A DNA stretch of 32,403 nt, taken from the IMG/VR virus record IMGVR_UViG_2675903336_000004; one strand, given 5' to 3'. The position numbers and the translations under genes were made by a program. This stretch comes from a virus (lineage: Duplodnaviria; Heunggongvirae; Uroviricota; Caudoviricetes). Below are positions 1,119 to 16,316 of this stretch, piece by piece; position 1 is the stretch's first letter, and each line of letters starts with the position of its first letter. The notes beneath the pieces were generated by a model that was not told the DNA's origin, ran no database searches, and saw only the letters and a list, made by a program, of their open reading frames with translations.

Positions 1119-1313
1119 GTCCTTTCCGGCGATCCGACAGGTTACGGGGCGGAAGGCGCGCGGGTTTTCGCTATTTATGACAATTTTCCGGTTTAAGGCG
1201 TTTCCGTTCTTCTTCGCCGTAACCTAATGTTTTTATTTAAAACACCCCCTGAAAAGAAAGGAAACGACAGGTGCTGAAAACGGGCTTTTTGGCCTCTGTC
1301 GTTTCCTTTCTCT
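1119..1313 (+). other. cos: prophage cos packaging site (cosQ-like segment, cosN 1147-1158, cosB with R3, IHF site, R2, R1)
   Basis: Sequence gatccgacaggttacg followed by a 12-nt cohesive-end position, then cgcgggttttcgctatttatga. R-site-like repeats CGTTTCC(G/T)TTCT occur at about 1196-1216 and 1297-1313, with an inverted copy at about 1255-1270 and an AT-rich IHF-like site at about 1226-1245. All lie directly upstream of nu1, as in lambda. Confidence 0.85.
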
Positions 1314-1881: not shown

Positions 1882-4901
<3,020 letters not shown>

Positions 4902-4978
4902 AACCCTTGCTGCGTCTGGAATGTCGTTTTCCATGCTTTTGATGACCGTTCATCACCCTTCCAGTTTTTCGCGGTTTT

Positions 4979-5031
4979 GTGTATTGCAATGTGTATTGCA
5001 AATTGGCGATCGGGATGGGTGTGTATTGCAA
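4979..5031 (+). repeat. integrase arm-type direct repeats GTGTATTGCAA x3 (attL arm, upstream of int)
   Basis: Exact 11-mers at 4979-4989, 4991-5001 and 5021-5031. Two more copies in the same orientation sit at 15645-15667, just inside attR. Confidence 0.7.
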
Positions 5032-5049
5032 ATCTCTTGAGGGCTTTTA

Positions 5050-6291
5050 ATGGCTATTGAAAACAAACTCAGTGACAAACTGTTAAAGAGTCTTGTCGGA
5101 AAACGGCAGGACAAACAAAAAACAATAGCGGATGGGCGCGGGTTGTCTGTGCGTGTAAGCATGGTTGGGGGGATCAGCTTTGTTTTTTACTATCGTCTTG
5201 GTGGCAGGGAATCCCCTCCGGTATGGCTTACACTTGGTCGCTATCCTGACATGTCTCTTGCAACGGCCAGGCGCATGCGTGATCAGTGCCGTGAATGGCT
5301 GGCTGAAAATCTGGACCCCCGCAGGCAAATAAAACTTGCTGCCGAAAAAACTATGCAACCAGTGACCGTAAGGGATGCGCTGTTTTACTGGTACGACAAT
5401 CACGCCACAACAGCCAGAAAAGAGCATGAATATTTAATAAAACGATTTGAAAAGCATATCTTCCCCTATATCGGTGATATGGCTATAGAACAGTGCAAAT
5501 TACACACATGGCTTACCGTCTTTGACAGGATCAAAAAAAATGCGCCTGTTATGTCTGGTGCAATTTTTCTTGATATCAAACAGGCGTTGCGTTTTTGTCG
5601 CGTCAGGCAATACATCGCGTGCGATCCCTTTGGAGATATTAACGTAAGTTATGTCGGGCGCTCATCCGGTATAAGGGATCGCGTTCTTAATATCAATGAA
5701 ACCGCTGATGTATGGTCTTATGCTTACGGTAATAATTTGCTAACTCTGTCATCAATATATAACCGAAGAATAATGGTTATCTGCCTGGTGTTTGGTTGCC
5801 GACAGCAGGAGGCGAGGCTATCCACCTGGGACGAATGGGATTTAAAAAACTGGGTATGGACAGTCCCAAAAGAGCACAGCAAAAACAAGGAGGCTATAGT
5901 AAGGCCTGTTCCTGACGGAATAAAACAATGGATCGTTAATCTTTACGCAGAAACAAAAAATCGCGGTTATGTTGTCGGTTGTGCTTTGCAAAGGGCGACA
6001 ATAACAGGGGCTGCAAACAGAATATGCAGGCGTCTTGGTCATGATACTAATGGCTTGTGGTGCATACATGATTTCAGGCGCACATTTTCCACTACGCTTA
6101 ATGATATGGGGGCGGATCCTTATATTGTCGAACTTCTTTTAGGTCATAAAGTGAAAGGGGTTGCTGGTGTTTACAATAAAAGCAGGCATATAAAGAAAAA
6201 ACTTGAGGTGCTTAATATGTGGGTTAATTACCTTAATACGATAGCAGGATTTAACAACAACGTTATCGAGCTTAATAAAGAGGTGGTGTGA
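5050..6291 (+). CDS. int: tyrosine-type site-specific integrase (P4-like family)
   Basis: 413-aa ORF with the C-terminal catalytic signature HDFRRTFSTTLNDMGADPYIVELLLGH...VYNKS (His-x-x-Arg and Tyr). Located immediately inside attL, preceded by the arm repeats. Confidence 0.9.
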   Translation: MAIENKLSDKLLKSLVGKRQDKQKTIADGRGLSVRVSMVGGISFVFYYRLGGRESPPVWLTLGRYPDMSLATARRMRDQCREWLAENLDPRRQIKLAAEKTMQPVTVRDALFYWYDNHATTARKEHEYLIKRFEKHIFPYIGDMAIEQCKLHTWLTVFDRIKKNAPVMSGAIFLDIKQALRFCRVRQYIACDPFGDINVSYVGRSSGIRDRVLNINETADVWSYAYGNNLLTLSSIYNRRIMVICLVFGCRQQEARLSTWDEWDLKNWVWTVPKEHSKNKEAIVRPVPDGIKQWIVNLYAETKNRGYVVGCALQRATITGAANRICRRLGHDTNGLWCIHDFRRTFSTTLNDMGADPYIVELLLGHKVKGVAGVYNKSRHIKKKLEVLNMWVNYLNTIAGFNNNVIELNKEVV

Positions 6292-6292
6292 T

Positions 6293-6550
6293 ATGACAAT
6301 TTATTCTCTTGTTGATGAAAACGATTTGCGCACAATGAAGGACATTGATCGGTTCATTCGTGAAAAAGAGTGCATAGCACTTACCACGCTGGCAAACTCA
6401 ACACGCTGGAAAATGGAGCAGGCAGGTAAATTCCCGCGACGTATCAAGATCGGTGAACGTGCTGCAGGGTATCGACTTTCAGAGGTTCAGGCATGGATCC
6501 GTGGTGAGTGGCATCCTGGATGGAAACCTGGAAAAACAAAACAGCAATAA
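6293..6550 (+). CDS. alpA: AlpA-family transcriptional regulator / putative excisionase
   Basis: 85-aa ORF directly downstream of int. The segment IREKECIALTTLANSTRWKMEQAGKFPRRIKIGERAAGYRLSEVQAWI fits the AlpA/Xis-type HTH pattern. Confidence 0.8.
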   Translation: MTIYSLVDENDLRTMKDIDRFIREKECIALTTLANSTRWKMEQAGKFPRRIKIGERAAGYRLSEVQAWIRGEWHPGWKPGKTKQQ

Positions 6551-6563
6551 CCAGTAAATAATG

Positions 6564-6586
6564 CCCCTCATCACGAGGGGTTTTTT
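6564..6586 (+). terminator. rho-independent terminator after alpA
   Basis: Hairpin CCCCTC-atcac-GAGGGG followed by TTTTTT. Confidence 0.75.
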
Positions 6587-6606
6587 GTCTATAAGGTAAA
6601 AACGCG

Positions 6607-7185
6607 ATGAATAAAAATATTGCCGTGACGGGCAAGGGGTACGCTCGTCCAGTGAAAAAATTCTGCGATATTCGTGATCTCGTCGTTCTGCGCTTTGATA
6701 GTGTGAACGTTCGTGTGGTGTATCTGAACGGCGATCCGTGGTTTGTTGCAAAAGATGTTTGTGCTGCGCTGGAACTAACCAATTCGCGTACGGCGTTGCA
6801 GATGCTTGATGATGATGAAAAGGGAGTAAATTTAACTTACACCCCAGGAGGAAATCAGAATATGAGAATTATCTCTGAGTCAGGTTTCTACAAACTAATA
6901 GCCCGCAGCCGCAAAGCAACGACGCCTGGCACATTTGCTCATCGTTTCAGTAACTGGGTATTCAGAAATGTGATACCAGGTATCAGAAAAACGGGGACTT
7001 ATGGTATCCCGTGGGGTGCATTACAGGATTTTTCCCGCCGTAAAGAGCAATATCAAATAAGTGCCAGCGAGAAGGGGAGGGAGCTACAGGCATGTAAGCG
7101 CAAAAAGCGTGAGCTGGAGGAAGAAGAAAAAACGCTGATACGTGAATATCAGCCTGAGTTTTACTTTGGTAACCGCATTCAGTGA
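6607..7185 (+). CDS. Bro-N domain protein (antirepressor-like)
   Basis: 192-aa ORF. The segment DPWFVAKDVCAALELTNSRTALQMLDDDEKG...ISESGFYKLIARSRKATTPGTFAHRFSNWVFRNVIPGIRKTGTY matches the Bro-N/KilA-N type domain, with a charged coiled-coil-like C-terminus. Confidence 0.65.
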   Translation: MNKNIAVTGKGYARPVKKFCDIRDLVVLRFDSVNVRVVYLNGDPWFVAKDVCAALELTNSRTALQMLDDDEKGVNLTYTPGGNQNMRIISESGFYKLIARSRKATTPGTFAHRFSNWVFRNVIPGIRKTGTYGIPWGALQDFSRRKEQYQISASEKGRELQACKRKKRELEEEEKTLIREYQPEFYFGNRIQ

Positions 7186-7215
7186 CAAAACAAAGGCGAC
7201 CGCAAAAGGGTCGCC
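7186..7215 (-). terminator. putative rho-independent terminator of the leftward operon (possibly bidirectional)
   Basis: Hairpin GGCGACC-gcaaaag-GGTCGCC at 7195-7215, preceded on the + strand by aaaacaaa, which reads as a T-run after the stem on the - strand. Confidence 0.5.
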
Positions 7216-7281
7216 AGTGGGAACAAGGGAAAACAAAAGCATCACCAACAATGCCACATTTGCGGCTGGTGGGCAATGTGA

Positions 7282-7461
7282 TCAGTCAGATTTGGTTCGT
7301 TCCAAGGTTTGCAACGAGAGCTTTTTCCTGTGCTCTTTAAGGAATTTCTCAAGAGCAAACGAACAAGGTGCGAATCTTTCTGATTCATGTTCATGCGCTA
7401 TATTTTTGCGTCGTCTCTTACGAGTTGGTGATGGTGTTTTGGTTGATTCTGTGTCGCTCAT
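7282..7461 (-). CDS. small basic hypothetical protein (59 aa; below the ORF-track threshold)
   Basis: Manual translation of the reverse strand gives MSDTESTKTPSPTRKRRRKNIAHEHESERFAPCSFALEKFLKEHRKKLSLQTLERTKSD. It has an AGGA-containing RBS about 7 nt upstream and lies between orf101 and the terminator on the same strand. Confidence 0.35.
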   Translation of the reverse strand: MSDTESTKTPSPTRKRRRKNIAHEHESERFAPCSFALEKFLKEHRKKLSLQTLERTKSD

Positions 7462-7518
7462 GGTGCTGTCCTGTAAAGCAATGCGCCTGCGTTCCTCAAA
7501 CTATGGCGCTGATATTGG

Positions 7519-7824
7519 CTATTCATGCTCTTTGACCTTGCGTCGCTGGAGTTCTTCACGCGCGACGGTGACGAGTTGCCCGATCTCCTCGGCTGCTTTG
7601 ATGCCGATTTGTTCGACCTTAGCCAGGGCATCCAGTGACGACACAAGGGGATTTTCTCCGCTGCCTTCTGCTTGGCGGCGGGCTATTTCTCCGCGCATGG
7701 CGGTTACGATAAATCCGGCATTGCTTTCACCGTCCAGCTTAACGGATTCCATCCCTTGCATAACATCTAGTGGGACTCTGACAGTTGTCAGTTGTGATTT
7801 TGCGTTTTTGTTAGCCGTTGCCAT
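7519..7824 (-). CDS. putative transcriptional regulator (101 aa), divergent from the island early operon
   Basis: Complete ORF with an AGGAG RBS 8 nt upstream. It is transcribed away from the operator-containing intergenic region, and its position mirrors satellite/phage repressor genes. Fold assignment is tentative. Confidence 0.45.
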   Translation of the reverse strand: MATANKNAKSQLTTVRVPLDVMQGMESVKLDGESNAGFIVTAMRGEIARRQAEGSGENPLVSSLDALAKVEQIGIKAAEEIGQLVTVAREELQRRKVKEHE

Positions 7825-7885
7825 TTCTGAAACTCCTAATCATCGGTGTGTTTCAGTATACACAAAAAAAGAAATACAAAAAGCC

Positions 7886-7923
7886 TTGACGTGTGTTTCA
7901 TGCGCTCATAACATGAAACACAC
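7886..7923 (+). promoter_or_regulatory. rightward promoter (TTGACG, 17 bp, TAACAT) overlapped by a 12-bp perfect inverted-repeat operator
   Basis: GTGTGTTTCATG (7891-7902), 9-bp spacer, CATGAAACACAC (7912-7923). A third half-site GTGTGTTTCA is at 7846-7855. The -35 TTGACG is at 7886-7891 and the -10 TAACAT at 7909-7914. Confidence 0.6.
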
Positions 7924-8014
7924 CGAAAGGATTGTTGAAATACAAAGAGCAACGCCCCGCAGTGCTGGGAACACATACGGGGCGTCTAACCAACAACGTA
8001 AACTAGGAGCCGTT

Positions 8015-8212
8015 ATGGTTGCTGTAAATCATATACCACACCTTGTACACACACAAACGGCCTTTGTGTGGCGTTTTCTGGCACTGAGTGCCGGAGAATC
8101 TCAAATCATCCACGTAACCGCCTGGACGGAACGCGAAGCGCGTAGCCGTTGCCCGTCCGGTTGTGTTGCTGTATTCGCTGCAAAAATCCGCCAGGGAGTG
8201 AGTCATGCTTAA
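8015..8212 (+). CDS. small protein (65 aa), possibly Icd-like cell-division-inhibitor family
   Basis: ATG at 8015 with an AGGAG RBS 5 nt upstream; it shares frame and stop with the tail of the spurious long ORF 7142..8212. First gene after the operator-controlled promoter. Family assignment is from memory of a VWRFLAL-type motif and is tentative. Confidence 0.4.
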   Translation: MVAVNHIPHLVHTQTAFVWRFLALSAGESQIIHVTAWTEREARSRCPSGCVAVFAAKIRQGVSHA

Positions 8213-8390
8213 AACCTTCCGTGTATTTGCCCGAGCTGTTAACCCAATAGGCCACACAATTGGTATCGCTCAGAATGTGAAGGCTGTTAATGTTCAGACG
8301 GCTATTGCTGCGGTGAGAAGCGAATCATCAGAATATGGCTTATCACAAGTCATTATTTCAGCAGTGTATGAATTAAAAGAGGTGCATTAA
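8205..8390 (+). CDS. hypothetical protein (61 aa)
   Basis: Complete ORF whose start overlaps the stop of the preceding gene, indicating a translationally coupled operon. Confidence 0.4.
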   Translation: MLKTFRVFARAVNPIGHTIGIAQNVKAVNVQTAIAAVRSESSEYGLSQVIISAVYELKEVH

Positions 8391-8581
8391 TGCAGGAAAT
8401 TACATTACACGAAGCCGCTGAACGTGCGCACCAGACAGAAATTATTTGCCGCCTTCTTGAGGTATACCCGAACAAAATTACAGATGCTGATATATCCGCA
8501 CTGGCGAGCCTACTGGCGCGTCTTTCGGGAAGTGTCGCTAGTTTTTTGATTGAGGAAGAAAGTAAGCTGGTGGGGGATTAA
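8390..8581 (+). CDS. hypothetical protein (63 aa)
   Basis: Complete ORF with a TAATG stop/start overlap with the previous ORF. Confidence 0.4.
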   Translation: MQEITLHEAAERAHQTEIICRLLEVYPNKITDADISALASLLARLSGSVASFLIEEESKLVGD

Positions 8582-8803
8582 ATGAATACAGAACGGGAAG
8601 TCTTTTTTAAATTGTTAGCATGTGCAGAAAGTTCATTAACTTTAAATAATTCAGCAAAAGCAATATTAAATATGTGGCTTGATTGCATAAATGACAATGA
8701 AGATGCAAATATTGCTTATGGCCTGTTGTCACTTATTGATGAATCAGCAGAAAAACTCAATGACGCAATAAATAGTGCCCTGCTATCAAATAAGTCGAGT
8801 TAA
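8582..8803 (+). CDS. hypothetical protein (73 aa, AT-rich)
   Basis: Complete ORF abutting the previous stop. Codon composition is AT-rich. Confidence 0.4.
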   Translation: MNTEREVFFKLLACAESSLTLNNSAKAILNMWLDCINDNEDANIAYGLLSLIDESAEKLNDAINSALLSNKSS

Positions 8804-8820
8804 GTCGAGGAATAAATAAT

Positions 8821-9120
8821 ATGGAAATGAAAAATTCTGGCTTTATTGCCAGCGGCCCCGCTCGACCTGAATTTATGAACGGCGATATTTACCGCGATAA
8901 ATACGGCGGCACGGTAACGATTAAAGGCGTGGCAGAACGGCGCATCACTTACCGCCGTGAGGGGTATAGCTATGACTGCGTGATGCCTGTTTATCAGTTC
9001 CGGCGTGATTTTTCCCTGGTATATGCCGCACCCCGCAGTAAGCCCATCAGCAGGGAAAAAGCGTGGGGAAATATCCAGAAAATGAAAACCATGATTAACG
9101 GATTCAGAGGTAAAAAATGA
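8821..9120 (+). CDS. hypothetical protein (99 aa)
   Basis: Complete ORF with an ATGA overlap with the pri-rep start. Confidence 0.45.
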   Translation: MEMKNSGFIASGPARPEFMNGDIYRDKYGGTVTIKGVAERRITYRREGYSYDCVMPVYQFRRDFSLVYAAPRSKPISREKAWGNIQKMKTMINGFRGKK

Positions 9121-10871
9121 AACTGGCACCGAACGTAAAACAGCAGTCACGCGGCATAAAACACAAAGGAACAGAAGTCATTATTTTTGCGGGTAGTGAT
9201 GCCTGGGCACACGCGAAACAATGGCAGGAACATGATGCGCGTATGGCCGGAGATAATGAGCCTCCTGTGTGGCTTGGGGAGCAGCAGCTATCCGAACTGG
9301 ATAATCTGCAAATTGTGCCGGAAGGCCGAAAATCAGCACGCATATACAGGGCCGGATATCTTGCGCCTGTAATGATAAAGACGATTGGTCAGAAGCTGGC
9401 GGCAGCAGGCGTACAGGATGCAAATTTTTATCCTGAGGGTATGCACGGCCAGGAGGTGCAGAACTGGCGCGAATATCTGGCCCGTGAACGCCAGAATCTT
9501 TCTGATGGTCTGGTCATTGAGCTTCCGGTAAAGCAAAAGGCGCAACTTTCGCAGATGGCGGACAGTGAGCGCGCGCAGTTGCTTGCCGATCGCTTTGATG
9601 GCGTTTGCGTACATCCTGAAAGTGAAATCGTTCACGTATGGCGCGGCGGGGTATGGTGTCCGGTCAGCACAATGGAACTTAGCCGCGAAATGGTGGCGAT
9701 CTATTCAGAGCACAGGGCCACTTTCAGCAAGCGCGTAATCAATAACGCCGTGGAAGCGTTAAAAGTTATTGCCGAACCAATGGGCGAGCCGTCTGGCGAT
9801 TTGCTGCCGTTCGCCAATGGTGCGCTTGACCTGAAAACGGGGGAATTTTCCCCGCACACGCCGGAGAACTGGATCACCACGCACAACGGCATTGAGTACA
9901 CGCCACCAGCACCAGGGGAGAACATCCGCGATAACGCGCCAAACTTTCATAAATGGCTTGAGCACGCAGCCGGAAAAGACCCGCGCAAGATGATGCGTAT
10001 ATGTGCCGCGCTGTACATGATTATGGCGAACCGGTACGACTGGCAGATGTTTATTGAGGCCACCGGAGACGGCGGGAGCGGTAAAAGTACATTCACACAC
10101 ATAGCCAGCCTTCTGGCAGGGAAACAGAACACGGTAAGCGCTGAAATGACATCGCTTGATGATGCTGGTGGACGTGCGCAGGTTGTCGGGAGTCGTCTTA
10201 TCGTCCTGGCTGACCAGCCGAAATATACAGGCGAAGGAACGGGCATCAAGAAAATCACAGGCGGCGACCCCGTGGAAATTAACCCGAAATATGAAAAGCG
10301 TTTCACGGCGGTAATCAGGGCGGTGGTGCTGGCGACCAACAACAACCCGATGATATTCACCGAACGGGCCGGAGGTGTGGCACGTCGTCGCGTGATTTTC
10401 CGTTTCGACAATATCGTCAGTGAGGCCGAAAAAGACAGGGAGCTACCGGAAAAGATTGCGGCTGAAATCCCCGTTATTATCCGCCGATTGCTGGCGAACT
10501 TTACCGACCCTGAGAAGGCACGGGCTTTACTACTGGAACAGCGTGACGGTGATGAAGCACTGGCAATAAAGCAACAGACGGATCCGGTTATTGAGTTTTG
10601 CCAGTTCCTGAATTTTCTGGAGGAAGCGCGCGGCCTGATGATGGGTGGCGGTGGTGATTCAGTGAAGTACACGACCAGGAACAGCCTTTACCGCGTCTAT
10701 CTGGCGTTTATGGCATACGCGGGCAGGAGCAAACCGCTAAACGTGGCTGAGTTCAGCAAGGCCATGAAGCCAGCGGCGAAAGTTTACGGGCATGAATATA
10801 TTACGCGAAAAGTTAAGGGAGTAACGCAGACCAACGCAATTACAACAGACGATTGCGACGCGTTTTTATAA
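9117..10871 (+). CDS. primase/helicase replication initiator (pri-rep; P4-alpha/D5-like NTPase)
   Basis: 584-aa ORF with Walker A GDGGSGKST and a Walker B-like RLIVLADQP. Size, domain order and position (upstream of an iteron array) are as in PICI pri-rep genes. Confidence 0.85.
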   Translation: MKLAPNVKQQSRGIKHKGTEVIIFAGSDAWAHAKQWQEHDARMAGDNEPPVWLGEQQLSELDNLQIVPEGRKSARIYRAGYLAPVMIKTIGQKLAAAGVQDANFYPEGMHGQEVQNWREYLARERQNLSDGLVIELPVKQKAQLSQMADSERAQLLADRFDGVCVHPESEIVHVWRGGVWCPVSTMELSREMVAIYSEHRATFSKRVINNAVEALKVIAEPMGEPSGDLLPFANGALDLKTGEFSPHTPENWITTHNGIEYTPPAPGENIRDNAPNFHKWLEHAAGKDPRKMMRICAALYMIMANRYDWQMFIEATGDGGSGKSTFTHIASLLAGKQNTVSAEMTSLDDAGGRAQVVGSRLIVLADQPKYTGEGTGIKKITGGDPVEINPKYEKRFTAVIRAVVLATNNNPMIFTERAGGVARRRVIFRFDNIVSEAEKDRELPEKIAAEIPVIIRRLLANFTDPEKARALLLEQRDGDEALAIKQQTDPVIEFCQFLNFLEEARGLMMGGGGDSVKYTTRNSLYRVYLAFMAYAGRSKPLNVAEFSKAMKPAAKVYGHEYITRKVKGVTQTNAITTDDCDAFL

Positions 10872-10886
10872 TTTTTTGTAAAAGCC

Positions 10887-11105
10887 ATCTACCCCATCTA
10901 CCTGAACAAAATAAACGCATATTATTCAACATGATAAGTGGGTATAGGGCTAGGTAGAAGGCTAATAAAAGCTCTCTACCTCTTCTACCTGATTTTATCA
11001 GTTTCAGGTAGCAGGGTAGACGGCAGGTAGAGGAGTCAAAAAGCTATCTACCCGCTGAAAGCCGCGCCATTACTGACATGATGAGCATTCGGGTAGATGG
11101 GTAGA
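10887..11105. repeat. iteron array / putative replication origin (GGTAGA/TCTACC motifs, about 12 copies in both orientations)
   Basis: ATCTACC at 10887 and 10896; GGTAGA at 10953; TCTACC at 10975 and 10984; GGTAG(A) at 11007, 11015 and 11026; ATCTACC at 11046; GGTAGA at 11092 and 11100. Lies immediately 3' of pri-rep. Confidence 0.65.
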
Positions 11106-11218
11106 GGGGGGGAGGCACAACTAAAAACTTTTTAAACGAGGGGGGGTGAAAATAAATGCGCATACATAAAAATCACTTAACAAACATGCCAGCCGAAAAC
11201 ATGAATCAGGGGCGACAA

Positions 11219-11470
11219 ATGACCAAAATTCGCAGAGACAGAACACAGGCAAAATATAAAGCGTTAGACATGACAGAGCTTTCCTTAAAGGTGGCAATCA
11301 AAGCGATAGACCACCACACACGGGCAGGATACGCGAAGGAACATCCCGACCTGATAAGCGCATTCATGACCACAGCAGCGGCAAACTTTGCCACGCTGAC
11401 AGAACGGGAGATTGCCGAAGCGGAACAGGTGACAACCATCAATGTTAAAACCGGAGAGCAGACAGCATGA
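11219..11470 (+). CDS. hypothetical protein (83 aa from the ATG at 11219; track ORF begins at 11156)
   Basis: ATG at 11219 has an AGGGG RBS 6 nt upstream. Stop overlaps the ssb start (ATGA). Confidence 0.45.
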   Translation: MTKIRRDRTQAKYKALDMTELSLKVAIKAIDHHTRAGYAKEHPDLISAFMTTAAANFATLTEREIAEAEQVTTINVKTGEQTA

Positions 11471-11889
11471 CAGCACAGATAGCGGCTTACGGGCGGCTGG
11501 TGGCTGACCCGCAGTTAAAGACCACCAGCAAAGGGACACAAATGGCGATGGCGAGTATGGCGGTTCCCCTGCCGTGCAGCCAGGCAGATGACGGAACGGC
11601 GACGATGTGGTTATCCGTCCTGGCGTTTGGCAGACAGGCCGACGCACTGGCAAAACACCACAAAGGCGAACTGGTGAGCGTGGCGGGTAACATGCAGGTA
11701 AGCCAGTGGACAGGCCAGAACGGCGAAACGCGGCGGGGCTGGCAGGTTATCGCAGACAGCGTAATCAGTGCGCGAACGGCGCGACCGGGCGGCAAAAAAG
11801 GCCAGCAGGGGCAGGCCACTGACGCACTGAACAGGGCAAAACAACAGTCGGGGAATGATGATCCGTACGGCGATAATATACCGTTTTAA
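11467..11889 (+). CDS. ssb: single-stranded DNA-binding protein
   Basis: 140-aa ORF with an OB-fold-like core (MWLSVLAFGRQAD...VSQWTGQNGETRRGWQVIADSV), a Gly/Gln-rich linker and an acidic tail ending DDPYGDNIPF, like the SSB C-terminal DDDIPF tail. Confidence 0.75.
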   Translation: MTAQIAAYGRLVADPQLKTTSKGTQMAMASMAVPLPCSQADDGTATMWLSVLAFGRQADALAKHHKGELVSVAGNMQVSQWTGQNGETRRGWQVIADSVISARTARPGGKKGQQGQATDALNRAKQQSGNDDPYGDNIPF

Positions 11890-12100
11890 ATTCTGCAAAC
11901 AAAAAGATGCCGGAAAAAAATAGATTTTCCGGCATGCTACATAAATCCCGACCAAAGGAAGTAAATACATTAACACGAATTATCAGCACTGAAGTTGTTA
12001 CGGCATATTTTATACAACATTGCACTTGGTTGCATGTATTCGCATAGCAGACATCGGTAATAGAATATATTCACAATTATTTGTAATGAATGTAAAGAGG

Positions 12101-13147
12101 ATGAGTATGGTTGATTTATATTCGCCTACACAGCTTGTGCAGGTGGCTAATGCTGAAGATGTGCAAAAAAAATTAAATGCGTTGTTTACCAGTTTGTTTT
12201 TCACTCGCTCGGTAATGTTTGAATCGAGAGACATTATTCTTGATACGATCGACGATCCAAATATCCCGATCGCGGCGTTTTGCTCTCCTATGGTGGGCAG
12301 TAAAGTTTCACGAGATGAGGGATACGAATCAAAAACAATTCGTCCAGGTTATATGAAGCCGAAAAGCAGCATTGATCCAAATAAGTTAGCTGTGCGCCCT
12401 GCTGGTGTGTCACCTGAGCAATACAATGCTTTTGGGGCGCGTAATATTAAAGTTAAACAGGCGATTGTAAATCAGGCTAAAGCTATTCGTGCACGTATTG
12501 AATGGCTTGCTGTTCAGGCAATCACAACGGGGAAAAATATCATTGAGGGCGATGGTATTGAACGTTATGAGCTGGACTGGAATATAAAACCACAAAATAT
12601 CATCACTCAGTCTGGCGGTACTGAGTGGTCAGGTAAGGATAAAGAAACTTTTGATCCAAATGATGATATTGAGAGCTACGCAGAATTTAGTGAGGGCGTC
12701 ACTAATATCATCATTATGGGTGGTAATGTATGGAAGAAATACCGTTCATTCAGAGCGATAAAAGAGGCTTTGGATACCCGTCGTGGTTCTAATTCCGAAC
12801 TGGAAACGGCCCTTAAAGACCTTGGTGATTCGGTGAGTTTTAAAGGGTATATGGGCGATGTTGCGATTGTTGTTTACAGCGGGCGTTATACCGACGAGGA
12901 CGGAACAGAAAAACATTTCCTTGATCCTGATTTGATGGTGCTTGGCAATACGGCTCTTCAGGGGATTGTCGCCTATGGCGGTATTCAGGATCCGGAGCTA
13001 ATCCGAATGGGGCTGACTAAAGCCGAACTTGCACCGAAAAACTATATTGTGCCTGGTGATCCGGCTATTGAATATGTGCAGACACATTCAGCACCACAGC
13101 CAATACCGGCCCGCATCAATCGTTTTGTTACCGTTCGCATTGGCTAA
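12101..13147 (+). CDS. lambda gpE-like major capsid protein paralog (island-encoded)
   Basis: Alignable by eye along its length to the helper gpE in this window (18230..19255), e.g. ITQSGGTEWSGKDKETFDPNDDIESYA vs ITQSGVTEWSKRDKSTYDPTDDIEAYA, and TRRGSNSELETALKDLG...YMGDVAIVVYSG vs TRRGSHSELETAVKDLG...MYGDVAIVVYSG. Clearly diverged. An alternative start at 12107 has better RBS spacing. Confidence 0.8.
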   Translation: MSMVDLYSPTQLVQVANAEDVQKKLNALFTSLFFTRSVMFESRDIILDTIDDPNIPIAAFCSPMVGSKVSRDEGYESKTIRPGYMKPKSSIDPNKLAVRPAGVSPEQYNAFGARNIKVKQAIVNQAKAIRARIEWLAVQAITTGKNIIEGDGIERYELDWNIKPQNIITQSGGTEWSGKDKETFDPNDDIESYAEFSEGVTNIIIMGGNVWKKYRSFRAIKEALDTRRGSNSELETALKDLGDSVSFKGYMGDVAIVVYSGRYTDEDGTEKHFLDPDLMVLGNTALQGIVAYGGIQDPELIRMGLTKAELAPKNYIVPGDPAIEYVQTHSAPQPIPARINRFVTVRIG

Positions 13148-13156
13148 GGGGGAGCA

Positions 13157-13498
13157 ATGGCTACTCATTACACTGAACTCATGGCTGGCACTGAAGCACT
13201 GGTGACTACGCTGGGGATATTTTCAGCTAATAAAGGGGTAATTCCTGCATTTACGCCACTGATGCAGGAAGATGCAACAGGTGCACTGGTGGTATGGGAT
13301 GGTTCGAGCGTAGGTAAAGCGGTTTATGTTTCCGCTGTACAAATCGACACAGCGAAAAAAACACAGGCACAGGTTTATAAGACAGGTGTTTTAAATGTTG
13401 ATGCTCTGAACTGGCCTGAGTCTGTAAAAGAACTGTCGGCAAAGGTTGCCGCGTTTGTTGGCTCAGGTATTTCTGTTCAGCCGCTGGCTCGTGTGTAA
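13157..13498 (+). CDS. lambda gpD-like head decoration protein paralog (island-encoded)
   Basis: 113-aa ORF with a strong RBS (AAGGGGGAG). Shares the motifs TPLM, WDG, YKxG and WPE with the helper gpD (17842..18174) at equivalent spacing. Gene order is E-like then D-like, the reverse of lambda. Confidence 0.7.
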   Translation: MATHYTELMAGTEALVTTLGIFSANKGVIPAFTPLMQEDATGALVVWDGSSVGKAVYVSAVQIDTAKKTQAQVYKTGVLNVDALNWPESVKELSAKVAAFVGSGISVQPLARV

Positions 13499-13509
13499 AG
13501 GGGGATACA

Positions 13510-13893
13510 ATGCAGAATCATTACAATGACCTTAAGCCAATTGCCGAAATGATGTATCCGGATCCAGCAGTAGAGGAATTAAAGGCTATTGCTGACAAAA
13601 TGCGTTTAAGTGAACGCCTTGTTGATATGAATCAGGTGATGGAACTTACTACCCTTAGCCGTCGCACATTGCTAAACCTTGAGGCTCGCGGAGAGTTCCC
13701 CGAACGCGTACAGGTTACGGAAGGGCGTAAGGCCTGGTATTTAAGTGAAGTGATCGACTGGATAAACAATATTCCTCGATCTTCTGAATATTGCCGCGTA
13801 CCTGTCCCAAAAAAGCCAGATGCGGCGCTATGCCTCAAGATTGAGCGTGTACGTCGCAATGCACGGGATGGTCGCTATAAGTTGATTGGTTGA
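13510..13893 (+). CDS. AlpA-like HTH DNA-binding protein (second AlpA paralog), directly upstream of the island cos
   Basis: 127-aa ORF with RBS AGGGGG. The central segment MELTTLSRRTLLNLEARGEFPERVQVTEGRKAWYLSEVIDWI fits the AlpA/MerR-like HTH pattern and is flanked by N- and C-terminal extensions. Confidence 0.6.
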   Translation: MQNHYNDLKPIAEMMYPDPAVEELKAIADKMRLSERLVDMNQVMELTTLSRRTLLNLEARGEFPERVQVTEGRKAWYLSEVIDWINNIPRSSEYCRVPVPKKPDAALCLKIERVRRNARDGRYKLIG

Positions 13894-13918
13894 TGAAATT
13901 AGGGCCCGTTCTGGCTGG

Positions 13919-13985
13919 CGGGTCCTTTCCGGCGATCCGGTAGGCTACGGGGCGGCGACCTCGCGGGTTTTCGCTATTTATGAGC
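13919..13985 (+). other. cos: island cos site (cosQ-like segment plus canonical lambda cosN GGGCGGCGACCT at 13950-13961)
   Basis: gggtcctttccggcgatccg...ctacgGGGCGGCGACCTcgcgggttttcgctatttatga matches the lambda cos core as recalled. Downstream sequence, where cosB would be, differs from the prophage cosB. Confidence 0.8.
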
Positions 13986-14094
13986 CTTTTTCGGGTGCTG
14001 GTGGTGGTTTTGTTGTTCGCTCTATCTCTATGAATAAAAAGGAAAAGATAAAGCCAATACACCAACCTGAAACATTACTTAAGTGGGGATATTG

Positions 14095-14637
14095 ATGAAA
14101 TCGCACCTGATGAACAAAAAAAACATGGCGCAAAGCTGCCGTGTAAGTGCGACAGCGTTCGACAAGTGGGGAGTGACTCCCGTTGAACGTAAAGGCCGCG
14201 AGGCGTTTTATGATGTTGCCAGCGTAATAGACAATCGGGTTAGCAATGCAATTAACCAGATTACAGACGACAAAGGCGAGATTGATGATGATGAACTCCT
14301 ACGAGTCAGGATCAGATTGCTGACAGCACAGGCAGAGGCGCAGGAGCTTAAAAACGAGCGCGAACGCGGCGACGTTATTGATACAGCGTTTTGTATATAC
14401 GTGCTTTCAAAATTGGCGAGTCAGATTTCTTCAATCATGGACAGCCTGCCGCTTGCCATGACAAGGAAGTTTCCCGACATGAAGCCGTCTATGCTGGATG
14501 GACTGAAAAAAGAAGTTATCAGAGCCTGTAACGCATGCGCAAAACTTGACGAAAACATACCGCTGATGCTGTCCGATTATCTGATGGAAACTGCCGGAAA
14601 CGTACCGGATAAGTTGCAGCCGAATAAAGATAAGTAA
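14095..14637 (+). CDS. Nu1-like terminase small subunit (island-encoded; diverged N-terminal DNA-binding domain)
   Basis: The C-terminal two-thirds align with helper Nu1 (LTAQAEAQELKNERERGDVIDTAFCIYVLSKLASQISSIMDSLPLAMTRKFPDM vs LTRAQADAQELKNARDSAEVVETAFCTFVLSRIAGEIASILDGIPLSVQRRFPEL). The N-terminal about 60 aa are diverged. ATG at 14095 has a GTGGGG RBS; the track ORF starts at GTG 14083. Confidence 0.85.
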   Translation: MKSHLMNKKNMAQSCRVSATAFDKWGVTPVERKGREAFYDVASVIDNRVSNAINQITDDKGEIDDDELLRVRIRLLTAQAEAQELKNERERGDVIDTAFCIYVLSKLASQISSIMDSLPLAMTRKFPDMKPSMLDGLKKEVIRACNACAKLDENIPLMLSDYLMETAGNVPDKLQPNKDK

Positions 14638-14648
14638 CGTAGTACGCT

Positions 14649-14930
14649 ATGACTGAATCCGAAATACTGCGATTAATCCGCCGTGCTTGTGGAATCAGCA
14701 AGCAGCATGACGAACAGGCCACGCAGCCGGACAGCGTGACCGCAGATAATTATGTGCGTGTAGTGGCTGAGGTGATGCGCCGTGACGGTATTGAGCTTAA
14801 CGGCGTGGATATGCGCAACATACGAACAAGAGTCCTTGAGTTGCTGGCATATCGTCGCCGTTCTCAACAACGGAGGGAGAGCGCGAAAAATACTTACCAG
14901 TGGAAGAAGCCGGAACGATTGCGGCGGTAA
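14649..14930 (+). CDS. hypothetical protein (93 aa, Arg-rich C-terminus)
   Basis: Complete ORF immediately downstream of the island terS. No recognisable motif. Confidence 0.4.
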   Translation: MTESEILRLIRRACGISKQHDEQATQPDSVTADNYVRVVAEVMRRDGIELNGVDMRNIRTRVLELLAYRRRSQQRRESAKNTYQWKKPERLRR

Positions 14931-14945
14931 CTTGCTGATATTCCC

Positions 14946-15156
14946 GATAACGCAAAATTGCGCTGGCTGACTTGTTGCATTGCAAAAAGTTAAGCAGGAA
15001 GGCACGGCCTGTAAGATGGGATGCAGTAAGTAGTTCAAGGCTACCTTGTGCTGGCACGCACAGTTAAGCCGTCGGTGCTGGATATCCCCCACTGGGGGAA
15101 AAGCTGGCTACATCCCTCACATCTGAGGACTGATAACGCGACATTGCGCTGGCTGG
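14946..15156 (+). repeat. pair of 24-bp direct repeats GATAACGC(A/G)A(A/C)ATTGCGCTGGCTG, each followed by a short palindrome
   Basis: Copies at 14946-14969 and 15133-15156 match at 22 of 24 positions. Palindromes CGCAAAATTGCG and GTGCAAAATTGCAC lie within or next to them. Confidence 0.6.
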
Positions 15157-15180
15157 CAAAGTGCAAAATTGCACGATGGC

Positions 15181-15342
15181 CTAACCCATTGATTATTTCG
15201 AAAACCTGCAATGCAGGAAATCGGGGAAGTAAGCCTAAGCTATTGATTGTTTCGAAAACCCCCATTGGGGGATGTCGGGAAAGTAAGACTAACCCATTGA
15301 TTCTTCCACAATCCTCAATTTGAGGAGGCCGGAACGTCTACA
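15181..15342 (+). repeat. three tandem 54-bp repeat units, each with a different perfect hairpin (covarying stems)
   Basis: Units start at 15181, 15235 and 15289, each with CTAA(C/G)C(C/T)ATTGATT. Hairpins are CCTGCA-a-TGCAGG (15205-15217), CCCCCA-ttg-GGGG (15259-15271, stem of 4-5 bp) and CCTCAA-t-TTGAGG (15313-15325). Related hairpins lie upstream at 15086-15098 and 15115-15128. Confidence 0.7.
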
Positions 15343-15644
15343 TAGCTGCATCGCCGTAATGATGATTCAGCCCACCAGCCAAATCAGCACAGCAACGACA
15401 GAATAGCCCGACACAGAAAAACCACGAATATGGGGTTTTTGTTATGACATGGTCATGATGACCACTCATACAAAACAGGTAAAGCCCACCAGCCTGATTA
15501 AAGGTTAACCGGAAAAAAGCCAGGTATCCAATCTCGATATGGGGATCCCTATATCGACATTAACGCCCACTAAAACTGTGCATATATGCATAGAAAAAGC
15601 ATCCACCAGCTTTATGACGGATGCCGCTCATCTTATAAATAATC

Positions 15645-15667
15645 GTGTATTGCAGTGTGTATTGCGA
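15645..15667 (+). repeat. integrase arm-type repeats (GTGTATTGCAG, GTGTATTGCGA) at the attR arm
   Basis: Two copies in the same orientation as the three attL copies, about 75 bp inside the attR core. Confidence 0.65.
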
Positions 15668-15739
15668 CTCCTTTAAACGATAGGTCTGAGCATTCGTAAT
15701 GTACTGTTTTTAAATTTTATTTTTTCCTGTCTTTTCATA

Positions 15740-15747
15740 AAGGCGAT
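15740..15747. repeat. attR core (AAGGCGAT), right copy of the direct repeat
   Basis: Identical 8-mer to 4842-4849. Lambda B coding sequence resumes immediately to its right. Confidence 0.7.
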
Positions 15748-16316
15748 GTATGCCGCCACCATTGAAAGTGAGCTGGATACGCAGTCAGCGATGGATTTTA
15801 TTCTGGGCGCGAACAGTAAGGAGCAGCGGGAAAGGCTGACGGGCTGGATTGGTGAAATTGCCGCGTATTACGCCGCAGCACCGGTCCGTCTGGGAGGCGC
15901 AAAAGTGCCGCACCTGATGCCGGGGGACTCACTGAACCTGCAGACGGCTCAGGACACGGATAACGGCTACTCCGTGTTTGAGCAGTCACTGTTGCGGTAT
16001 ATCGCTGCCGGGCTGGGTGTCTCGTATGAGCAACTTTCCCGGAATTACGCCCAGATGAGCTACTCCACGGCACGGGCCAGTGCGAACGAGTCGTGGGCGT
16101 ACTTTATGGGGCGGCGAAAATTCGTCGCATCCCGTCAGGCGAGCCAGATGTTTCTGTGCTGGCTGGAAGAGGCCATCGTTCGCCGCGTGGTGACGTTACC
16201 TTCAAAAGCGCGCTTCAGCTTTCAGGAAGCCCGCAGTGCCTGGGGGAACTGCGACTGGATAGGCTCCGGTCGTATGGCCATCGATGGTCTGAAAGAAGTT
16301 CAGGAAGCGGTGATGC
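15746..16316 (+). CDS. B: portal protein B, 3' fragment (from native Met276; truncated by masked gap at 16317)
   Basis: MYAATIESELDTQSAMDFILGANSKEQRERLTGWIGEIAAYYAAAPVRLGG... matches the lambda gpB C-terminal half. The ATG at 15746 overlaps the attR core. Confidence 0.9.

Follow-up and report, generated by a model that had tools for sequence, protein, structure and literature searches.

Tandem IHF-linked palindromes at the end of a phage satellite are copies of a segment from three roi alleles and probable operators for helper-phage Roi

We analyzed a window of 32,403 nucleotides, consisting of a lambdoid, DLP12-like E. coli prophage and a 10.9-kb satellite inside its lambda-B-type portal gene, and found that the right end of the satellite contains a tandem array of units related to the phage gene roi. 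The array probably represents tandem composite copies of an IHF site and a Roi operator, with multiple specificities, by which the satellite would capture or sense the Roi protein of its helper phages. As judged by alignment, the units are non-coding copies of an approximately 45-50-bp segment of roi, each containing an IHF consensus and, 9-10 bp away from it, a dyad of 13-15 bp that we infer to be a putative Roi operator.

Based on annotation, Pfam matches and the split portal gene, which is interrupted at 4842-4854 and 15740-15752, the carrier is a helper-embedded PICI (HE-PICI), a group of elements described in Tommasini, Mageeney & Williams 2023 (PMC10111431). The genes of the satellite are arranged in the order integrase, AlpA-like, frameshifted Bro-N, Icd-like, DUF4222, D5_N primase, origin and SSB, followed by a late part with a lambda-E-type capsid gene, a decoration gene, a second AlpA-like HTH (13510-13893), cosQ/cosN, TerS and an ORF of 93 amino acids. 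A doubled TGTGTATTGCA motif flanks the att core. The DLP12-like prophage that hosts the satellite has no roi gene, and neither a roi gene nor a Rha/Roi-type domain was found in the satellite by annotation, Pfam or comparison with Roi. The satellite contains the following features outside of its palindromes:

4842-4854: attL core, matching the attR core; the att core is also written AAGGCGATnTATG
4978-5001 and 5020-5031: TGTGTATTGCAA repeats
10880-11110: origin (ori) with GGTAGA/TCTACC iterons
13950-13961: cosN, a perfect lambda cosQ/cosN sequence, GGGCGGCGACCT, in the island's own packaging module (13950-14637, plus strand)
14083-14637, plus strand: TerS gene, for which Pfam gave a single match, to the C-terminal half of Nu1
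14649-14930, plus strand: orf93, the final gene of the island, assigned to PHROG 1561 (function unknown)
15645-15667, no strand assigned: integrase arm-type motif, doubled, GTGTATTGCAGTGTGTATTGCGA
15740-15752, no strand assigned: attR core, AAGGCGATGTATG

The array is located in the approximately 800-bp non-coding right end of the satellite (14931-15739). TRF identified one tandem array, at 15179-15302, with a period of 54, 2.3 copies, 80% matches and a score of 164, and a repeat search placed three in-register copies of 54 nt with starts at 15179, 15233 and 15287 and identities of 100, 80 and 61%. The array spans 162 bp (15179-15340), and every unit contains one conserved box, CTAAnCnATTGATT, and one perfect palindrome of distinct sequence. 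The first-pass annotation had described three 54-bp units with a box and a different perfect palindrome in each, and its starts at 15181, 15235 and 15289 correspond to the same register with a 2-nt shift. The two upstream hairpins that it listed were also recovered (TCCCCCACTGGGGGA and CCTCACATCTGAGG), and three further palindromes, GTGCAAAATTGCAC, CGCAAAATTGCG and TTGCATTGCAA, can be added to its list. The units and palindromes are as follows, with no strand assigned to any of them:

14926-14985: degenerate first unit, with the box GTAACTTGCTGATA (differing from the IHF consensus at one position) and the palindromes CGCAAAATTGCG (14951-14962) and TTGCATTGCAA (14975-14985)
15085-15128: two palindromes without a box, TCCCCCACTGGGGGA (15085-15099) and CCTCACATCTGAGG (15115-15128)
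15161-15174: palindrome GTGCAAAATTGCAC, directly upstream of unit 1
15179-15232: unit 1, with the IHF-consensus box TAACCCATTGATT (15182-15194), an A/T-rich spacer and the palindrome CCTGCAATGCAGG (15205-15217)
15233-15286: unit 2, with the IHF box TAAGCTATTGATT (15236-15248) and the palindrome CCCCCATTGGGGG (15259-15271)
15287-15340: unit 3, with the IHF box TAACCCATTGATT (15290-15302) and the palindrome TCCTCAATTTGAGGA (15312-15326)

The density of palindromes in the array region is far above chance. Counting perfect palindromes with arms of at least 6 and a center of at most 2 nt, five were found in 420 bp, as compared to 0.31 +/- 0.57 in dinucleotide shuffles, of which none in 2,000 reached five. 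The median for windows of the same size over the entire sequence was zero. The half-site types of the two palindromes without a box are those of units 2 and 3. In a related satellite, L003, the palindrome GTGCAAAATTGCAC is accompanied by an IHF-consensus box of its own at the usual spacing, which suggests that the copy at 15161-15174 is a unit minus its box. The degenerate first unit starts at the stop codon of orf93 and has an intact counterpart with a consensus box in the viral locus L470, and a degraded second copy, GATAACGC..GCGCTGGCTG, is located at 15132-15155.

The conserved box reads YAANNNNTTGATW, which is the IHF consensus WATCAANNNNTTR on the opposite strand. Three matches to this consensus were found in the 32.4-kb window, and all three are the boxes of the units. 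In an alignment of 24 units, the consensus positions of IHF were invariant and the NNNN positions variable. IHF sites usually have an A/T-rich stretch on one side, and the A/T-rich stretch of the units is located on that same flank of the box. The center of the dyad falls at an identical alignment position in 41 of the 49 signature-bearing units with perfect arms.

BLAST searches against E. coli genomes and phages returned strong single-unit matches of approximately 50 bp within genes annotated as 'antirepressor KilAC' or 'Roi', which Stx phages and other lambdoid phages have in their nin region. Units 2 and 3 matched only roi genes ('Roi', 'anti-repressor') in 60 phage records, with E-values from 1e-10 to 3e-13, and 'antirepressor KilAC' genes in E. 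coli prophages. For unit 2, the identity to the roi of VT2-Sakai/Stx phages ('..NPPMVVFEKINNLGLL..') was 90.6% over 53 bp, and for unit 3 the identity to the roi allele '..HPQIEDCGRINGLGL..', present in phi330, Lahn2 and many Stx prophages, was 96% over 50 bp. The counterpart of unit 1 is the LPALQ roi allele ('..LPALQVFEKINNLG..'), and unit 1 also has the palindrome core CTGCAATGCAG in common with the roi gene of HK022. The minus strand of the window corresponds to the sense strand of phage roi. In this orientation, unit 2 reads RHPPMGVFETINSLGLL, as compared to ..RNPPMVVFEKINNLGLL.. in the Roi of VT2-Sakai; unit 3 reads RPPQIEDCGRINGLVLL, as compared to ..RHPQIEDCGRINGLGL..; and unit 1 reads FPALQVFEIINGLG, as compared to ..LPALQVFEKINNLG.. 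in its allele and the more distant ..PPALQHTNIINDLG.. in HK022. By these alignments, units 1-3 are copies of one segment of approximately 18 codons from three different roi alleles. The part of roi that is represented in satellites covers Roi residues ~42-57 (codons ~42-58) and nothing further.

The two motifs of the units have a fixed place in the phage genes. The IHF consensus was located at identical codons in all 19 N-terminal variants of roi from the fetched loci (five main alleles), invariably with the spelling ATC-AAT-nnn-TTA, in which Leu has the rare codon TTA, and a palindrome was found 9-10 nt from it in all 19. Each roi gene has one such consensus, and there is one in 10 kb of HK022. 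The box encodes a conserved I-N-x-L-G motif in the phage genes, and its conservation there may thus be partly at the protein level. The sites in roi are present in one copy per gene within the coding sequence, whereas those of the array are non-coding and in tandem. The dyads also differ in symmetry. In the roi allele '..NPPMVVFEKINNLGLL..' the palindrome is imperfect, CCACCATTGGGGG, because a Val codon blocks its symmetry, whereas the satellites have CCCCCATTGGGGG or CCACCATTGGTGG in its place, which makes the dyad more symmetric in satellites. Another palindrome in roi, TTTCACAGTGAAA at nt ~580, is kept in all alleles.

Roi is an 'antirepressor' protein with a Rha-type winged HTH and a KilAC domain. 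The roi alleles are near-identical to each other except at residues ~20-64, and, as read from the sequences, the DNA element would lie within this hypervariable cassette together with the putative recognition helix and the wing. The sequence of the putative recognition helix follows the dyad type across recombinant backgrounds, the pairs being NVKRTIETL with CCTCAA, NVK[VI]SI[DE]RL with CTGCA and KVKQSIERL with CC[A/C]CCA. The HTH protein Roi of HK022 reportedly binds to a site in its own gene that is closely linked to an IHF site, and its binding is said to be stabilized by IHF; Roi is also reported to block lytic growth in IHF-deficient hosts. The Roi site of HK022 is presumably the palindrome described here, an assumption that is strongly constrained but is weakened by the other conserved palindrome of roi, TTTCACAGTGAAA.

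The three units display the three dyad types of three roi allele groups, which suggests that Roi proteins from several helpers could dock on them. Roi and IHF would occupy the units together, with an IHF-induced bend adjoining each docking site. When a phage with a roi gene enters lytic growth, its Roi, stabilized by IHF, would be captured on the matching unit of a satellite that is then replicating and present at high copy number. We infer that the effect of this capture is either titration or sensing. By titration, Roi would be drawn off the intragenic site of the phage, and the development of the helper would be hindered or retuned. By sensing, the capture would mark the satellite DNA as 'helper present', and this mark could serve as an architectural switch or a roadblock where the satellite operon ends, a place just upstream of att and int once the element is circular. 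No sigma-70 promoter-like site was found within the array, and a regulatory output is therefore not evident; this, like the lack of roi in the prophage around the satellite, counts against the proposal. Since the units within the array differ, the Roi of any one helper would occupy just one of them, and the array looks built for breadth of helper recognition rather than for cooperative assembly.

Related arrays of one to four units, in varied combinations and orders, were observed in satellites that are integrated elsewhere (at yicG/dinD, clpS and other sites) and carry other cargo, likewise downstream of the last operon gene, and no annotation covers the array region in these satellites. The 162-bp array had matches in 686 of 5,426 E. 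coli genomes, with at least 80% of the array matched in 140 of the 5,426; the short single-unit matches among these genomes are the roi genes themselves. In addition to the boxed GTGCAAAATTGCAC of L003, the unit types TTCGCCAGCGGCGAA, CCTCCATTGGAGG and CGCCATTGGCG were identified, and more distant versions were found in L225/L129 and in one Xenorhabdus genome. A scan of genome contigs with CTAANCNATTGATTNTTYC returned mostly chance matches in unrelated phyla, the sole informative one being L029 (Xenorhabdus). The divergent units of L225 and L178 had no BLAST match in the phage collection, the matches to GTGCAAAATTGCAC in the viral scan were chance matches with no recurrent phage-gene context, and a search of the PDB with the Roi sequence returned nothing useful. 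An unrelated satellite palindrome, CTACGAAATTTTCGTAG, was also observed within other Rha-type/KilAC genes of phages, where it encodes xYEIFVx. This points to a general link between the palindromes of satellites and the regulator genes of phages.

The homology to roi could also be understood at the level of RNA. According to this explanation, which we consider unlikely, read-through RNA from the satellite operon pairs with approximately 50 nt of the roi mRNA of several alleles and thereby silences the roi gene of the helper. An operon transcript across the array would be antisense to roi mRNA in a constant orientation, as the array runs in the same direction as the satellite operon in the window and in L002/L329, L003 and L331, with the sense of roi on the opposite strand. 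Furthermore, no terminator in L331 separates the array from the last gene, at whose stop codon it begins, and the identity to roi alleles is 90-96% across 50 nt. Antirepressor genes under antisense control have precedents in P22 sar and P1 c4. However, the homology ends exactly at the two DNA motifs, and the differences from the phage alleles are located in the NNNN of the box and raise the symmetry of the dyad, neither of which is needed for pairing. Unit 1 has retained the box and the dyad alone in comparison with HK022, its spacer having diverged, and there are copies that lack the box or consist of the dyad only (15085, 15115).

About equally unlikely is that the units are debris, either scars of recombination between the satellite and phage roi genes or short patches of homology that promote such exchange. 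Red-type recombination uses patches of about 50 bp. The right flank of the L332 unit runs on into roi (GGAAGCCGGATAACACC), which identifies it as a clear recombinant. Capture of phage genes by this satellite family is described in PMC10111431. However, the roi content is always limited to the 50 bp that bear the sites, and copies from different alleles are joined head to tail at exactly 54 bp. The consensus and the dyad symmetry have been kept or improved, whereas the flanks and the reading frame decay, and the same architecture recurs with other dyads in L178, L225 and L029.

Still less likely, in our view, is that the units serve a protein of the satellite itself, such as the second AlpA-like HTH, orf93 or Bro-N, in its own regulation, excision or packaging, with the likeness to roi explained by common descent. 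The satellite encodes several DNA-binding proteins, a full-length homologue of orf93 directly adjoins the array on its upstream side in L331, and att and cos sites typically have IHF-assisted complexes. However, three unrelated dyads would not be read by one protein, the Rha/Roi-type domain is absent from the satellite, and arrays are common to satellites with different integrases. The position of the array is also at odds with this explanation. The first-pass annotation had correctly placed the repeats near attR, the att core AAGGCGATGTATG at 15740-15752 being approximately 400 bp away. This distance and the 1.2 kb to cosN count against sites of this kind, and the arm-type motif differs from the units. 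Its suggestion of protein-binding hairpins involved in recombination or packaging is favored with respect to protein binding but not supported with respect to recombination and packaging, as the arm motif, cosN and ori are all located elsewhere and satellites with different att sites share the array.

The same positions bear on several known types of element that were considered and rejected. A lambda-type cosB, with R sites and an IHF site no more than ~150 bp to the right of cosN, or a pac site does not agree with the location of cosN at 13950-13961, as terS and orf93 lie between it and the array, which starts 1.2 kb further downstream. Integrase arm-type or RDF sites, which would be clade-specific repeats at most ~150 bp from the core, were rejected because the core is flanked by another motif, TGTGTATTGCA, the array is approximately 400-560 bp off, and it is common to satellites with other att sites. 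A PICI replication origin consists of an AT-rich stretch that is flanked by two sets of iterons and directly adjoins the 3' end of the primase gene (PMC6092414). The origin of this satellite is at 10880-11110 and its iterons are unrelated to the units, and an origin or a P4 crr-like element was thus rejected for the array. An array of sigma-70 promoters found no match, and in a quick manual check for sigma-54 promoters the sequence did not have the GG-N10-GC spacing. REP/BIME chromosomal repeats were rejected since the units are homologous to roi and restricted to satellites and phages. The units are not a CRISPR array, as had been stated previously; they abut with no spacers, conserved and variable parts alternate within the unit, and the window contains no cas genes.

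The palindromes preserve their symmetry while their sequences change. In a set of 24 distinct satellite and phage units, 95.8% of the cells in the arm pairs were complementary, whereas shuffles gave 76% and slid controls 31-54%. Changes on both sides were seen in four of the six arm pairs, and none had changed on one side only. All changes led from one Watson-Crick pair to another, with no G:U state among the 144 arm cells, and the center of the dyad is 1 nt. Satellite units with lengths of 55 and 43 nt and with a 1-nt deletion were observed, in which the box and the dyad were retained, and unit 3 is not preceded by a start codon in the frame of roi. The combination of covariation by Watson-Crick pairs only, a 1-nt center and a reading frame that is not kept favors protein binding at the DNA level over RNA. 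The earlier claim that pairing rather than coding is conserved is thus borne out, both by the indels that break the frame and by the covariation analysis over related satellites and phages that had been recommended. In accordance with this, neither of the two ORFs across the array (15048-15323, plus strand; 15041-15265, minus strand) was accepted as a gene, since indels break the frame in relatives, the region is unannotated and unit 3 lacks a start codon. Taken together, the symmetry, the improved dyads and the IHF box favor, as sequence marks, an operator for a dimeric protein beside an IHF bend.

It is very improbable that the array instead encodes the structured RNA that was proposed at first, processed as an antitoxin-like or immunity RNA: the stems covary and the 291-nt region folds better than shuffles, but it does so about equally on both strands, as DNA palindromes do (z = -4.0 on the plus and -3.0 on the minus strand), the centers are 1 nt with no G:U pairs, no toxin partner or terminator was found, and the conserved box stays unpaired in the fold and agrees with a consensus for DNA binding. 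The recommended search of Rfam yielded no match at gathering thresholds, and the single match at a permissive threshold, STnc310 (E=4.4), is at chance level and outside the array. No toxin ORF, or any other ORF, was found between the array and attR, and an RNA of a ToxI-like type III toxin-antitoxin system was rejected for the same two reasons. The palindromes had also been said not to be terminators because no T-run follows them. This applies to the plus strand; on the minus strand, TTTTCGAAA follows units 1 and 2. The conclusion itself stands, as a terminator scan found none at the palindromes of the units, where the minus strand has TTTTC after a 5-6-bp stem in two of the three units.

If Roi is captured in the way that we propose, the array would represent a different principle, by which a helper protein is captured sequence-specifically by decoy or sensor DNA, and its multi-allelic make-up would explain how one satellite copes with many helpers. 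To our knowledge, the sensing and manipulation of helpers by Gram-negative PICIs is only partly understood, and the known mechanisms are based on proteins (for example Rpp, TerS and capsid remodeling). A broader proposal, which we offer tentatively and with less than even confidence, is that Enterobacterial satellites keep a modular 'operator library' of perfected copies of Roi/Rha operators, with IHF sites, in which one unit is held for each allelic specificity and many helpers can be detected or disarmed. If this is true, Rha-type regulators carry their operator in the wing-coding part of the gene, so that specificity and site form one recombination cassette, and intragenic self-encoded operators are possibly general for Rha-type proteins. 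Roi and Rha inhibit phage growth in IHF mutants. The proposal would draw attention back to an almost forgotten regulator and offer a testable handle on the function of Roi in Stx and other lambdoid phages. The array would also provide a compact marker of this satellite family in hundreds of E. coli genomes.

Two parts of the picture are already known, the HE-PICI carrier and the single intragenic Roi/IHF site, and no prior description of such arrays was found in the literature searched on PICIs/satellites and on Roi and IHF. The satellite resembles the HE-PICIs, as presented in PMC10111431, in its zones of integrase/AlpA, Bro-N, primase/SSB and late genes, in its insertion into a lambdoid portal gene and in the doubled motif that flanks attP; it differs in that a term search of this paper found no mention of Roi, palindromes or such arrays. 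The array is similar to lambda cosB (R3-I1-R2-R1) in that repeated sites for a winged HTH occur together with an IHF bend near a TerS gene, in a region related to packaging. However, it is located 1.2 kb from cosN, its dyads differ in sequence, and its homology is to roi and not to the R sites.

The late promoters of satellite P4, which depend on Ogr/Delta, share the activator site of the helper P2. The likeness is that the satellite bears copies of the DNA target of a helper regulator and responds to the lytic program of the helper. The sites of P4 are promoter elements of one specificity, whereas here no promoter is evident and several specificities are stacked. Titration loci such as the incA iterons of P1 and datA of E. 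coli, with its DnaA boxes and an essential IHF site, sequester a regulator. They resemble the array in the clustering of protein-binding sites and, in datA, in the presence of an IHF site, but they consist of one type of site for a protein of the same replicon, whereas the units of the array differ and their predicted ligand is the protein of a foreign helper. The closest counterpart in sequence is the intragenic Roi/IHF site of HK022, which has an IHF consensus and an adjacent dyad at the same spacing, nucleotide homology to the units and the core CTGCAATGCAG. In HK022 this site is present in one copy within a coding sequence, whereas the satellite, which has no roi gene, has at least three copies of it, of different allelic types, in tandem at 54 bp in non-coding DNA.

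The relation between the array units (tandem non-coding repeats, each with an IHF-consensus box and a palindrome) and the phage antirepressor gene roi, to which they are homologous, is paralleled by a second palindrome of the satellites, CTACGAAATTTTCGTAG. This palindrome occurs at positions 6415-6440 of L002 and 5120-5160 of L330, and also inside the genes of other Rha-type/KilAC antirepressors (phage loci L457, L489, L539 and L491), where it forms the codons for xYEIFVx, directly after the putative recognition helix. The satellite-to-phage-gene relation is alike in the two cases, although CTACGAAATTTTCGTAG lacks the IHF box. In each of three roi alleles inspected, the region for the C-terminal (KilAC) part holds a further palindrome, TTTCACAGTGAAA, at nt about 579-591 of the gene (e.g. 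L247 8656-9381), which could represent an additional protein site or the true Roi site.

More distant non-coding regions that share the grammar of the array are present in L225 (minus strand, 1680-1900), L129 and L029 (3650-3920, Xenorhabdus sp.). Each module there consists of TCTAAnnnnTTGATTCTTyCGA and then a palindrome that varies, with other palindromes interspersed among the modules.

In the stretch separating the array from attR, window 15345-15640 contains further repeats and palindromes:

15369, 15483 and 15603: AGCCCACCAGCC-type repeats, at spacings of 114 and 117
15418-15445: terminator-like AAAAACC..GGGGTTTTT
about 15450: palindrome GGTCATGATGACC
15530-15561: palindromes AATCTCGATATGGGGA/TCCCTATATCGACATT

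The modules of this region are also present in L003 and L178, in a changed order.

The packaging and replication elements of the satellite were recognized as well. A perfect lambda cosN, GGGCGGCGACCT, is located in the satellite within window 13940-13965. The resident prophage carries GGGCGGAAGGCG at the cosN position (window 1140-1165) within otherwise lambda-like cos flanks, suggesting either a diverged cosN or defective packaging. In the satellite TerS (window 14083-14637), the Nu1 profile match is confined to positions 80-162, which correspond to the C-terminal half, and the N-terminal DNA-binding part is unrelated. This make-up is consistent with diversion of the helper's terminase to the cosB that the satellite itself carries (window 13962-14080). 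An origin typical of PICIs is located at window 10880-11110, 3' of the primase gene; it has an AT-rich stretch with a set of GGTAGA/TCTACC iterons on each side. Masked bases (N) account for 1370 positions of the window. They form several runs, with starts at 3140, 16317, 20247, 24852 and 29731, and ORFs spanning these runs are unreadable.

The satellite (window 4842-15752) is inserted in the portal (lambda B-like) gene of the prophage and is co-oriented with the late operon. If the satellite were excised, the portal gene would regain its reading frame (GTGAAGGCGATGTATGCCGCC). The att core is flanked on either side by a doubled motif, TGTGTATTGCA, and the satellite, including this doubled motif around the core, fits the published class of helper-embedded PICIs.
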